From: an uncultured Burkholderiales bacterium
GTDB taxonomy: Bacteria; Vulcanimicrobiota; Xenobia; Xenobiales; JADMJV01
Length of the DNA: 64,000 bases
Direction of reading: 5' to 3'
Assembly (NCBI GenBank): GCA_964649085.1
Contig: CAZYPN010000002.1
Location: 158,991-222,990, forward strand
A program made the position numbers and the translations under genes. Shown here one piece after another: positions 61,115 to 64,000 of the stretch (its first letter is position 1; every line of letters starts with the position of its first letter). A model generated the notes under the pieces. It was not told the DNA's origin, searched no databases, and saw only the letters and a list, made by a program, of their open reading frames with translations.

Positions 61115-62396
61115 GGTTAAAGCGGCGATAACAGGGCAATTCGTGCCCGCTTGAACGGCAATACAGCCAGATTTCTTTGCCATCGGCTTTCAGCCAGTAG
61201 CCATAGGCCCCGCCATAAGGGCAAGCAAACTCGGCGGGTCGTTTCCAGCGCGACCCGTCGGCAGGAAATCCGGCCCTTGCCAAAGGCTTTTCGGCCAGTT
61301 GCTGCATATGCTCCAAACAGCGCTCTTGCTGCTCTCGAAGGTGCTCATCGCGCCGCCATTCCAACTCGGAAAAGCCCGAATACAGTGCCCACAGCAGCAA
61401 GCCCGTGCCCTGTCCCCGACCCTGGTAGGTCCAACTCTGGCCAGAACGCTTCCAGCGATGGGAATACTCGACCTGAGACAGAGCCGACAACATGCCCCTC
61501 AGGGCGGGGTCCTGACTGGCCTGCAATCGCCGAGCCGCCCAGGTTGATCCACGAAAGCTACCTGGCGCCTCTGGCCGGGCGGTGAGCAACGGCCCCTTGG
61601 GAAACCGCCCCCAGGCCGTGCCGTGTCGACACTTGCGAAATTCCCGCTGGCGGGCATCAAATTCATAGGGCCGAGCGTTCAGCGGGCAGGCCGGAAGTCG
61701 CGACCACATCCAGGGAACCAGCGGGGCCACCGAGAGGATGGGCTGGTCGCTAAACTGCTCCCAGGCCCCCAGGGCAGCCTGGGCCTTACTCCAGCGAAAG
61801 TAGCAACAGTTGGGGCTCTCGGCTACATCGGGGTGGGTAACAACGCCTGCCCAGGCTGGCCACCGAGGGTCAGGCTTGAGCAGCGAAGCCGTGCCTTCCA
61901 AAGTGAACTCCTGCCCTTGAAATCGTAAGAGAACATCACCCGTAACCGGTTCTTTCAGCAGTAGCCGCACGGCCTGCTCGGGAATCTTGGGGGCAGCCTC
62001 AGCCGACCCGAAAGTCCCTCCCAAGATCAGGAAACCCTGTTGCCAGCTGCATTCCACCTGCCCCAGTCCCAAAGCAGACAGCAAGTGGCGGGCCGCAGTT
62101 TGCCCCGGTTCAGGCCTGGAACAGGCCAGGGCCAGCCACCAGCGCCGAGGAGATTCCGACAGCAGCGCCAGCGCCCCGCGGGGTTCGGCGGCCTCCAACA
62201 GGGGCTCCACTTCCTGCCAGAGTGGAGACCGTGAAAAGGCGCGTTCGACGGCCTGCCAGGGTTGACCACGCAGGTCAAAGAGCAACACCGCCCGGGCCCC
62301 GCGGGGAATGCGCAGAGCTTCCCTGGAGGGCTTGTGAGGGGCGGCGCACCCCAGCAACAGAAGGGCCAGGACCAACAGGGCCTGGCCCGCTCTCAA
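61101..62396 (-). CDS. Hypothetical lipoprotein
   Basis: Start assigned to TTG 62396 (TTGA overlap with upstream gene stop), giving 'LRAGQALLVLALLLLGCAAPHK' lipoprotein signal. Remainder has no recognised family. Confidence 0.4.
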   Translation of the reverse strand: MRAGQALLVLALLLLGCAAPHKPSREALRIPRGARAVLLFDLRGQPWQAVERAFSRSPLWQEVEPLLEAAEPRGALALLSESPRRWWLALACSRPEPGQTAARHLLSALGLGQVECSWQQGFLILGGTFGSAEAAPKIPEQAVRLLLKEPVTGDVLLRFQGQEFTLEGTASLLKPDPRWPAWAGVVTHPDVAESPNCCYFRWSKAQAALGAWEQFSDQPILSVAPLVPWMWSRLPACPLNARPYEFDARQREFRKCRHGTAWGRFPKGPLLTARPEAPGSFRGSTWAARRLQASQDPALRGMLSALSQVEYSHRWKRSGQSWTYQGRGQGTGLLLWALYSGFSELEWRRDEHLREQQERCLEHMQQLAEKPLARAGFPADGSRWKRPAEFACPYGGAYGYWLKADGKEIWLYCRSSGHELPCYRRFNLSEN

Positions 62397-64000
62397 GCGT
62401 TGACCTCGGCGCCCGCCGTGATCTGTTCGATGGCCTTCAGGGTTCGATCCAGATCTTCCAGGCGATGATCGTGGTTGATAAAGAAGCGCACTCGAGCGGC
62501 CTCTTCCTCTACGGCGGGATAGACGATGGGCTTGACCACAATGGAAAAGCGCTCGAGAGCCGCACACAGCTGAAAACAGGCCATACTGTTGCCCAAAATC
62601 AGAGGCACCACGGGCGTGGCCTGGCTGTTGCCCAGCGGCAGCCCCAGCTTGCGACACCCCTCCCAGAAGTGGCGCGAGAGCCGGCGCAGATGGTCAACCC
62701 TTTGAGGCTCTTCCCGCAGCACTTCCAGAGCCGTCAGGGCCGCGCCCGTTAGCGGCGGCGAAAGTCCCACGCTGTAAATGAAGCCAGGCAGGCTGTAGCG
62801 CAGATAGTCCACCAGCGCGCGGCAGCCCACCAGATAGCCTCCGCAGCTGCCCAGGGTTTTGGAAAGGGTTCCCATCAACACCTCGACCCTCTTGGGATCG
62901 ACGCCGAAATGCTCGCAGATGCCTCGTCCGGTGGCCCCCAACACGCCCAACGAGTGTGCTTCGTCGACCATCAGCATGCAACCATACTTTTCCTTGATGC
63001 GAACCAGTTCGGGCAGGGGCGCAATGTCGCCGTCCATGCTGTAAATGCCTTCGACCACGATGAGCACCCGGCGAAAACGATTGCGGATCTTGATCAGCAG
63101 ACGTTCCAATGCCACGGTGTCGTTGTGGGGGAAGGACAGACGCCGGGCCTGACTGGCCTGGGCCCCTTCCAGAATGCTGTTGTGGCTCAGCGAGTCGTGC
63201 AAAATCAGGTCGGGACCCTGCATCCAGAAGCTCAGCAGCGAAACGTTGGTGGCGTGTCCTCCCACCATCAACAGCCCGGCTTCGTGGCCCAGGAACTGGG
63301 CCAGCGATTGTTCCAGCTGGCCGTGCAGCCCGACCTCGCCACCCACCAGACGGGAAGCCCGCGCCGAGCAGCCGTGATCGAACAGGGCTTTCTGGGCCGA
63401 TTCGAGCACCCGCGGATGCCGTCCCAGGCCCACATAGTTGTAGTGGCAGAAATTGAGCACCTCGGGGGGAGAAACCTGGAAGTAGGGATTGCGATCGCTC
63501 AGTTGCCCCAGCGCCTGCTGATGGGCCACCACCTCGGGCAACTGATCGACCCGCTTCCAATCCTCCGGGATCGACTCCCAGCTGCGGGCCGGCAGGTGCT
63601 GCACCCAGCGCGACTGCAACCCTCGCATCCAGGCCACCAGACGTCCGTTCTGATAGAGCTGAATGTCGGCTCGAGGGCCCTCGTCGTTCACCCCAAGCGA
63701 GCGCACGCGGGCCTCCAACAGGCCCGTGGTGAACTGGCTGAGCAAGGTGACTTCCTCGATGCGCGAGGGCAGCGCCCCCCGCCCGTGAACGCGATGAATG
63801 CCCAGCAGGGCCAGCTGCAGGCAACCGTCGATGACCAGGGGGTCCAGATGCCACTGGCTGCGCGGATCGCCCGGAATCCAATCGCGAGGAATCGAGGTAC
63901 GCACGCGTCCTACGATACCCTGGGGCCCAACTCGCAAGACGGAATGGATGCCCTCCAGGCGGCTGCCGTGAAAGGTGACCTCGGAGTAGAAGCGGGCCAG
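62393..64000 (-). CDS. Alpha-oxoamine synthase family enzyme (8-amino-7-oxononanoate synthase/serine palmitoyltransferase-like), N-terminal region PKS-dehydratase-like; gene continues beyond window end
   Basis: PLP-enzyme blocks 'GLGRHPRVLESAQKALFDHG', 'HDSLSHNSILEG', 'VVEGIYSMDGDIAPL', 'VDEAHSLG', PLP-Lys 'LSKTLGSCGG'. N-terminal 'HLDPLVIDGCLQLALLG' resembles DH motif 'HPALLDAALQ'. Reading frame stays open to position 64000. Confidence 0.75.
   Translation of the reverse strand: MARFYSEVTFHGSRLEGIHSVLRVGPQGIVGRVRTSIPRDWIPGDPRSQWHLDPLVIDGCLQLALLGIHRVHGRGALPSRIEEVTLLSQFTTGLLEARVRSLGVNDEGPRADIQLYQNGRLVAWMRGLQSRWVQHLPARSWESIPEDWKRVDQLPEVVAHQQALGQLSDRNPYFQVSPPEVLNFCHYNYVGLGRHPRVLESAQKALFDHGCSARASRLVGGEVGLHGQLEQSLAQFLGHEAGLLMVGGHATNVSLLSFWMQGPDLILHDSLSHNSILEGAQASQARRLSFPHNDTVALERLLIKIRNRFRRVLIVVEGIYSMDGDIAPLPELVRIKEKYGCMLMVDEAHSLGVLGATGRGICEHFGVDPKRVEVLMGTLSKTLGSCGGYLVGCRALVDYLRYSLPGFIYSVGLSPPLTGAALTALEVLREEPQRVDHLRRLSRHFWEGCRKLGLPLGNSQATPVVPLILGNSMACFQLCAALERFSIVVKPIVYPAVEEEAARVRFFINHDHRLEDLDRTLKAIEQITAGAEVNA

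Follow-up and report, generated by a model that had tools for sequence, protein, structure and literature searches.

Beyond the end of a DNA stretch lies the rest of a truncated gene: what does the whole gene encode, and what would its product make? The stretch is a 64,000-nucleotide segment from an uncultured bacterium (contig CAZYPN010000002.1, assembly GCA_964649085.1, positions 158,991 to 222,990; hereafter the window). An initial annotation, made from its sequence, described the gene at its end as a pyridoxal 5'-phosphate (PLP) enzyme of the alpha-oxoamine synthase (AONS)/serine palmitoyltransferase (SPT) family with a polyketide synthase (PKS)-like N-terminal region. The complete gene, recovered from overlapping contigs, encodes ketosynthase (KS), acyl carrier protein (ACP), dehydratase (DH) and AONS domains in one polypeptide. 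Judged by these domains and by the lipid genes conserved beside it, the product is probably a fused, reduced PKS-SPT-type enzyme that catalyzes the committed step of a sphingolipid-like (ceramide phospholipid) pathway whose chemistry we infer.

Bacterial sphingolipids have long been considered rare. The sole published PKS-dependent route to them (SgaAB, 2025) uses separate proteins and yields saturated bases, whereas the enzyme described here would be a fused, stripped-down version. It sits in a complete-looking ceramide phospholipid cassette, conserved within a candidate phylum that has hardly any cultured representatives.

Extent of the gene

An exact-protein look-up with the TerB-like gene product (window 60659-61114) identified six metagenome contigs. 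Five of the six overlap the window end at 99.8-99.98% identity across 4.3-4.5 kb, and contig L001 is 99.98% identical to window 59471-64000. On the minus strand, the window contains 535 open codons, from 64000 down to a TGA stop at 62393-62395, and no in-window start. The initial annotation had noted that this frame stays open past 64000; on the overlapping contigs it runs on for 752 further codons, giving a full gene of 1,287 codons on L001 and L007 with a GTG start at window-equivalent position 66256. A stop just past 64000 and a lack of PKS-like domains, which the annotation had named as findings that would speak against it, were both looked for, and neither appeared. Database proteins P0121 and P0244 end in exactly the sequence that the window fragment encodes. 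The gene is the last of a cluster that lies almost wholly beyond the window. Its parts are as follows.

62393-64000, minus strand: 3' part of the 1,287-codon KS-ACP-DH-AONS gene, codons 753-1287 and stop (open frame)
64001-66256 (window-equivalent; L001 4531-6786), beyond the window: remaining 752 codons (gene on L001 and L007)
63602-63994, minus strand: C-terminal hot-dog half of the PKS-type DH, full-protein residues 755-885 (Pfam PS-DH, E 4.9e-12; Foldseek)
63815-63829, minus strand: DH active-site motif D810-G-C-L-Q814 (Asp-x3-Gln), read from the sequence
63464-63601, minus strand: DH-AONS linker of ~46 residues, with no recognizable domain and no ACP between DH and AONS (gap between Pfam matches)
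62432-63463, minus strand: AONS PLP domain, full-protein residues 932-1275 (Pfam Aminotran_1_2)
62858-62860, minus strand: codon of the PLP-binding lysine K1133, motif GTLSKTLG (invariant in the 13-member alignment)

Domain architecture and catalytic residues

Pfam divides the full protein (1,287 aa) into KS (residues 1-394), KS-acyltransferase (AT) linker (411-522), ACP (573-611), DH (638-885) and AONS (932-1275), with catalytic residues present in all four domains. Domain annotation of the full protein, proposed as a check in the initial annotation, gave a type I PKS KS, ACP and DH in addition to the AONS. The upstream part of the gene bore out the multidomain PKS-like AONS protein suspected from the fragment: it encodes a KS, a remnant of the KS-AT linker, an ACP and the DH's N-terminal half; the module is, however, stripped of AT, ketoreductase (KR) and enoyl reductase (ER) domains.

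The KS is a typical type I PKS domain (PF00109, E 8e-63; PF02801, E 9e-31) whose best matches in the PDB are PKS KS domains. Its Cys-His-His triad is present, and C194, H332 and H369 are invariant in the family alignment. Among NCBIfam models, that of PfaA (TIGR02813) matches the KS, as does, weakly, that of PigJ. The AT family PF00698 was not found in the full protein, in which only the KS-AT linker is recognized (PF16197, PF22621, PF22336); PF00698 is present in relatives P0137, P0156 and P0134. Likewise, the KR and adh_short families have no match in the full protein, while a KR is present in P0137 and P0156.

The phosphopantetheine serine of the ACP is S602, in the motif DLGLDSL. Two comparisons support the assignment of this region as an ACP: it shows homology to relatives' stand-alone ACPs (tblastn 2.8e-4), and in the alignment it coincides with strong PP-binding matches of the distant members P0142 (6e-12) and P0166 (4e-8).

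On the window fragment, the PS-DH family matches residues 3-133 with 46 bits against a cutoff of 23.7. The annotation had found the segment HLDPLVIDGCLQ reminiscent of a DH motif, and it is indeed the DH Asp-x3-Gln motif (D810/Q814), invariant in the close family. Both residues are invariant in an alignment of seven sequences (A2), and D810 is nearly invariant in an alignment of 13 family members (A1); in the full protein, H657 and P666 are present alongside D810 and Q814. An AlphaFold model of the segment from ACP to the N-terminal part of the AONS was confident in the DH only, and its ACP and truncated AONS parts were left unused. The modeled DH matches solved PKS DH structures (CurJ, CurH, AlnB, PpsC) in Foldseek with an E value of 5e-12 and TM 0.65-0.70 over ~265 columns, across the full length of these domains, and the model confirms the predicted double hot-dog fold of a PKS dehydratase. 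The region ahead of the AONS core is thus DH-like, as first described, but spans ~180 residues (133 of dehydratase and ~46 of linker) in place of the ~120 then estimated. The linker is conserved in the close family.

The AONS domain matches Aminotran_1_2 (PF00155, E 4.9e-44) over fragment residues 180-523 and profile positions 2-360 of 361. This complete match and those to AONS-family structures in the PDB agree with the annotation's assignment of an AONS/SPT-family PLP enzyme. Fifty AONS-family entries in the PDB match below 1e-20, with ThAOS, LCB2, SPTLC2 and bacterial SPT at 210-227 bits and CqsA at 113 bits. Among NCBIfam models, the domain scores best against bioF, Kbl and SPT (260-336 bits, all under cutoff); the top model is bioF (336 bits, cutoff 426), and the CqsA-type model reaches 173 bits. 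The PLP-contact motif D1098-E-A-H1101-S and the lysine motif GTLSK1133TLG are invariant in the 13 family members.

A conserved lipid cassette

The initial annotation had expected a larger biosynthetic cluster just outside the window. Five lipid-type genes were found directly beyond it, whereas the lipoprotein gene that overlaps the PKS-AONS stop codon is not a member. The five encode the following products.

GNAT-fold acyltransferase, 356 aa, divergently transcribed, 80 bp from the PKS-AONS gene
Classical short-chain dehydrogenase/reductase (SDR), 259 aa
MprF/HpnL-like, flippase-type membrane protein
PAP2/PAP2_3 phosphotransferase with motifs PSGHT and HYVLDV (HYxxDV)
CDP-alcohol phosphatidyltransferase, 193 aa, with archaetidylinositol-phosphate (AIP) synthase and phosphatidylinositol-phosphate (PIP) synthase as best models

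The cassette of CDP-OH_P_transf, PAP2, flippase-like, SDR, GNAT and PKS-AONS genes is kept at 42-74% identity (tblastn) in the related loci with flanking sequence (L009-L015, L017 and L018), and in all of these the GNAT and SDR genes adjoin the PKS-AONS gene. The PAP2 protein gave weak matches to PgpB (E 2.2e-5) and phosphoinositol-dihydroceramide synthase (E 4.7e-5). No ER gene was found in the whole window or on L007, and the conserved cassette contains none.

No NCBIfam model and no PDB relative matched the GNAT protein, a member of a small family (98 matches). In a Bdellovibrionales metagenome-assembled genome (MAG), a homolog adjoins a stand-alone AONS of 426 aa. In Nitrosovibrio, two LptF/G paralogs, a DAGK-type lipid kinase and an epimerase come after the homolog, and an ACP is encoded close by. 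This order mirrors that of the Caulobacter sphingolipid locus, in which lptG2 and lptF2 come after bCerS (ccna_01212). We infer that the GNAT protein is a candidate N-acyltransferase of the ceramide-synthase type.

A stand-alone ACP of ~80 aa lies between the GNAT and PKS genes in every related cluster with flanks, compared with only the 80-bp spacer here (L007 9921-10001, against L009 9749-9994, L011 9750-10004 and L014-L018). Relative P0131 keeps the stand-alone ACP, and its embedded ACP has Glu in place of the phosphopantetheine Ser. Near the cassette, L007 1862-2692 encodes a 276-aa protein with no family match that is conserved (38-46% identity) in most related loci and may be a cluster member. 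Located 4-9 kb upstream are signaling genes that code for a Ser/Thr kinase and for GGDEF-EAL and FHA proteins; they are syntenic in the closest relative and missing from the other related loci.

Relatives and variation

The protein belongs to a tight family of homologs with 1,247-1,305 residues, 54-66% identity and the same architecture. In a scan of GTDB species-representative genomes, in which no contig exceeded 62% identity, close homologs were assigned to MAGs of Vulcanimicrobiota (Eremiobacterota, WPS-2), and syntenic Vulcanimicrobiota relatives show 60-74% protein identity; from these likenesses, the host is probably a member of the same phylum. Relatives at a greater distance (29-42% identity) were found in Myxococcota, in Oligoflexia and in related MAGs, the larger ones from Myxococcota being of the KS-AT-ACP-KR-DH-AONS type.

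Together the relatives form a graded series from KS-AT-ACP-KR-DH-AONS (P0137 and P0156; ~2,100-2,200 aa) through KS-AT-ACP-DH-AONS (P0134) to KS-ACP-DH-AONS (P0142 and P0166), in which the window protein reads as a version that would have lost AT and KR. More than 30 AONS-fused relatives were listed, and none of them matches an ER Pfam family, including those in which AT, KR and DH are all in cis. Next to the large relatives lie genes for a fatty acyl-AMP ligase (FAAL)-type AMP-ligase, a phosphopantetheinyl transferase (PPTase) and an SDR. The closest stand-alone AONS whose context was checked, P0078 of Acidithiobacillus (49% identical, locus L036), follows a reducing type I PKS of 2,429 aa, with an SDR in the same operon. 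At the sequence level, the AONS domain is akin to such PKS-partnered AONS enzymes.

Tailoring genes differ among the relatives. In a Vulcanimicrobiota locus (L009 13915-17359 and 5634-6266), the cluster extends with phosphonopyruvate decarboxylase, phosphoenolpyruvate mutase, nucleotidyltransferase and LicD-like genes, which suggests a phosphonate head group (aminoethylphosphonate-type) in place of that of the present organism. Around the distant KS-ACP-DH-AONS homolog P0166 (L013 5900-15882, on an 8-Mb contig) lie three FA_desaturase genes and a CMAS-type methyltransferase gene, together with an overlapping epimerase/3-beta-HSD gene and a 2-oxoacid_dh-like acyltransferase gene, a set reminiscent of fungal sphingolipid desaturation and C9-methylation. 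The tailoring genes of the two loci are of kinds typical of sphingolipids and vary in sphingolipid-like ways.

A different fusion was seen in Planctomycetota (P0021, P0031, P0057 and P0072; L037 8001-10697), where AMP-ligase(FAAL)-ACP-AONS proteins of 800-900 aa carry an AONS of ~50% identity to the present one. It looks like another undescribed way to feed an AONS.

Proposed pathway and alternatives

In the pathway proposed here, the KS would take a fatty acyl chain from acyl-ACP of the fatty acid synthase (FAS) or, in the relatives, from the dedicated stand-alone ACP, and would condense it with malonate on the embedded ACP. Because the enzyme has no AT, this ACP would be loaded in trans, for instance by FabD. 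The beta-keto group would be reduced in trans by FabG or the neighboring SDR, and the DH would dehydrate the product to trans-2-enoyl-ACP. The AONS domain would then condense the ACP-bound acyl group with an amino acid, releasing a 2-amino-3-keto long-chain base; the amino acid is most likely L-serine, proposed solely because the head-group enzymes require a C1 hydroxyl. The SDR would reduce the 3-keto group of the base, and the GNAT protein would N-acylate the base in the role of a ceramide synthase. A phospho-head group, possibly inositol phosphate, would be added by the PIP-synthase-like CDP-alcohol transferase and the PAP2 phosphotransferase, and the MprF/HpnL-like protein would flip the finished lipid. 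The identity of the head group is a guess, and no inositol-phosphate synthase gene is present in the window or the 10 kb beyond it.

Since ER domains are absent throughout the family, a 4,5 double bond may be retained in the base, giving a sphingosine-type backbone without a desaturase; we put this forward tentatively. A broader form of the idea, which we regard as doubtful, is that the KS-[AT]-ACP-[KR]-DH-AONS family as a whole sets the 4,5-trans double bond before the base exists, with DH-derived enoyl-ACP and serine giving 3-keto-sphingosine independently of an O2-dependent desaturase in Vulcanimicrobiota and Myxococcota. Alternatively, an FAS enoyl reductase acting in trans would lead to ordinary 3-ketosphinganine. 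The same pathway would then run on ordinary chemistry: one extension of an FAS chain, finished by housekeeping FabI, FabK or FabV, would supply saturated acyl-ACP, and the PKS part would replace the acyl-ACP synthetase and ACP of proteobacterial Spt systems. AT and KR already act in trans in this scheme, so that a trans ER is no further leap; the characterized PKS-sphingolipid system (SgaAB) yields saturated sphinganines, and the separate FA_desaturase genes in L013 suggest that double bonds are added later there. Set against this are the lack of an ER domain across the AONS-fused relatives and of an ER gene in the cassette, and we consider the saturated outcome possible but unlikely.

Other products have also to be weighed. 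AONS/OAS-terminated PKS modules exist in the prodiginine and saxitoxin pathways, and by analogy with RedL and PigH, an unreduced beta-ketoacyl-ACP could be joined to glycine or serine, the resulting amino-diketone cyclizing with help of the DH to an alkyl-pyrrolinone, a pyrrole or another alkaloid. The missing cis KR and the weak KS match to the PigJ model fit such a route, but the conserved partners are lipid enzymes rather than oxidases, cyclases or pyrrole-pathway genes, and the cassette is kept across the recovered Vulcanimicrobiota loci as expected of a core lipid pathway, which leaves the alkaloid improbable. Still less probable is an autoinducer synthase of the CqsA/LqsA type making an alpha-hydroxyketone or amino-ketone signal. 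CqsA does belong among the AONS enzymes, and the signaling genes upstream are shared with the closest relative; they are nevertheless absent from the other related loci, which retain the lipid cassette, no CqsS-like sensor is adjacent, and CqsA falls well behind in both NCBIfam (173 bits against 260-336 for bioF, Kbl and SPT) and PDB comparisons (113 against 210-227 bits). Of the sphingolipid-like, aminolipid or signaling products envisaged by the initial annotation, the cluster context favors the sphingolipid-like one over the signaling molecule. A housekeeping BioF/KBL enzyme carrying decayed, non-functional PKS domains is hardly credible: bioF is the best NCBIfam model and a Thermus BioF/KBL enzyme the best PDB match, yet the bioF score lies under its cutoff, all PKS catalytic residues are conserved in a family of 54-66% identity, bioA, bioB, bioD and tdh were not found nearby, and the architecture is conserved across phyla.

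Several observations weigh against the sphingolipid-like pathway, even though we prefer it. The AONS domain misses the SPT equivalog cutoffs (NF047600, 285 of 640; NF047599, 260 of 500; NF047603, 187 of 670) and scores about equally against BioF/KBL, SPT and LCB2 structures, a ranking that does not discriminate the amino-acid substrate. The embedded ACP is a weak Pfam PP-binding match (E 0.045). In the close family, the DH motif is HxxxR/KxxxxP, with Arg or Lys for Gly, rather than the canonical HxxxGxxxxP seen in distant members, and H657 is lost in two of 13 members (P0133 and P0142). Without AT, KR and ER in cis, three steps rely on trans partners, and FabD, PPTase, a stand-alone ACP and inositol-phosphate synthase were not found in the 64-kb window or the 10 kb beyond. 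The link of the GNAT protein to bCerS is one of synteny, not of direct sequence comparison. The neighboring SDR is most like (34% identity) an extra SDR beside a relative in which a KR is already present in cis. This likeness suggests a 3-keto-base reductase, which leaves the chain-extension KR without an assigned gene, and the identity comparisons did not separate these two roles.

Comparison with known systems

In Pseudomonas fluorescens MYb115, SgaA, SgaB and SgaC comprise an iterative type I PKS, a serine-specific alpha-oxoamine synthase and a KDS-reductase-like SDR, and were shown experimentally to produce sphinganines and phosphoglycerol sphingolipids (PMC12134224). The system described here shares the logic by which a PKS feeds an acyl chain to an AONS/SPT-type enzyme, as well as an SDR in the cluster. 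By operon arrangement alone, the P0078 operon corresponds to the PKS, AONS and SDR arrangement in the published Sga description. Sga has a separate, iterative, reducing PKS and a stand-alone AONS, whereas here PKS and AONS form one polypeptide without AT, KR or ER, and the domain order of the family (KS-AT-ACP-KR-DH) departs from that of a reducing FAS-like PKS. The present cluster adds bCerS-like GNAT, head-group and flippase-like genes, and the fused enzyme occurs in Vulcanimicrobiota and Myxococcota, in contrast to Sga in Pseudomonas and Burkholderia.

The canonical ceramide pathway consists of Spt, bCerS and CerR with a dedicated ACP and an acyl-ACP synthetase (Caulobacter; PMC11087976, PMC9386255, bioRxiv 10.64898/2026.04.12.717747). 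Both systems cluster an AONS-type enzyme with a reductase and a GNAT-fold N-acyltransferase, here a candidate, and the relatives have the dedicated small ACP; homologs of the GNAT protein occur in Spt-type and in Lpt-paralog-type loci. However, Spt is a stand-alone enzyme of ~400 aa, while the SPT-like part here is the C-terminal domain of a PKS. The cluster also lacks an acyl-ACP synthetase, and its reductase is a classical SDR rather than an epimerase of the CerR type.

RedL and PigH (prodiginines) and SxtA (saxitoxin) contain PKS modules with a terminal AONS/OAS domain. As in these proteins, a PLP-dependent AONS would act on an ACP-bound acyl group as the C-terminal, chain-releasing domain of a PKS. 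In RedL, PigH and SxtA, the ACP directly precedes the AONS and there is no DH, whereas the order here is ACP-DH-AONS, and the context is a membrane-lipid cluster rather than a pigment or toxin pathway. The iterative synthases of polyunsaturated fatty acids (PUFA; PfaA) and enediynes (PKSE) have the order KS-AT-ACP-KR-DH. The large relatives share this unusual order, with the ACP ahead of KR and DH and no ER, but end in an AONS rather than a PPTase or further PUFA subunits, and lack tandem ACPs.

Inositol-phosphoceramide genes of Bacteroides include the PIP synthase BT_1523 and a phosphoinositol-dihydroceramide synthase. The combination of a PIP/AIP-synthase-type CDP-alcohol phosphatidyltransferase and a PAP2-type phosphotransferase beside sphingolipid genes is similar here, but scores against the NCBIfam models NF052561 and NF052609 are far under the equivalog cutoffs (98 against 180 and 23 against 480).

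PKS-derived sphingolipids (SgaAB), stand-alone Spt-bCerS-CerR pathways and AONS-terminated PKS modules are already known. A literature search returned no description of a KS-ACP-DH-AONS fusion with the DH directly before the AONS, of the larger KS-AT-ACP-KR-DH-AONS relatives, or of the link of the fusion with a ceramide-type cassette or its presence in Vulcanimicrobiota, and nothing on sphingolipids in Eremiobacterota. One survey mentioned 'hits that were part of longer proteins' without analyzing them. If the proposed pathway is correct, Vulcanimicrobiota (Eremiobacterota) would join the sphingolipid producers, and the fusion would serve as a marker for those metagenomic surveys that are restricted to stand-alone Spt and now pass over fusions. 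For engineering, it would also offer a compact route to long-chain bases through one protein, and possibly a desaturase-free way to the 4-ene of sphingosine, that is, a second, oxygen-independent origin of the sphingosine backbone.

Other features of the window

On the window side, the PKS-AONS gene is followed by the lipoprotein gene mentioned above.

62393-62396, minus strand: TTGA overlap of the TGA stop of the PKS-AONS gene with the TTG start of the next gene (sequence; gene calls on six independent contigs)
61101-62396, minus strand: translationally coupled gene of a 431-aa lipoprotein, lipobox LLLGC (gene calls)

The TTG start (62396-62394) overlaps the TGA stop (62395-62393), and the N-terminus of the product, ...LLVLALLLLGC, is a lipobox signal; the annotation had read both the coupling and the lipoprotein correctly. 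The lipoprotein has no Pfam or NCBIfam family match and no tblastn match in any related locus examined. By these searches, the gene appears lineage-specific and outside the conserved cluster. The GT2 (HpnB-like), M20, M24 and TerB-like genes in the window likewise show no synteny to the related clusters, so the window side of the PKS-AONS gene is taken as the cluster boundary. In contig L002 (664-7921), the TerB-like gene (99.4% identical over 630 bp) lies beside RHS-repeat and Tricorn-like genes where the window has the M20 peptidase gene, an arrangement that indicates a probable strain-level rearrangement near window position ~60620.

Three further open reading frames (ORFs) lie deeper in the window.

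46793-47845, plus strand: ORF with PAP2_C (E 5e-9) and AtPDCT1/2 (E 2e-8) Pfam matches
25324-38109, plus strand: giant ORF of ~4,240 codons from the first GTG, 64% Gln/Leu/Glu/Arg
14760-20567, plus strand: TamB/AsmA/DUF748 protein, 1,935 aa

The first contains the motifs NDLFFSGHT and HWTMDVYAG, which we take to resemble the sphingomyelin-synthase signatures CGDxxxSGHT and HYTxDV. Encoded 15 kb away from the long-chain-base synthase, its product is a candidate second phospho-head-group transferase, and the ORF shows no synteny to the related clusters. Its true start is likely the internal MSLVILT..., giving a membrane protein of ~200 aa. The giant ORF matches no Pfam family and has skewed GC content by codon position (GC1 0.83, GC2 0.32); its product appears to be a single very long coiled coil. 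The TamB/AsmA/DUF748 protein is a candidate lipid-transport bridge between membranes, and points to a diderm envelope for a phylum assigned to Bacillati by NCBI.

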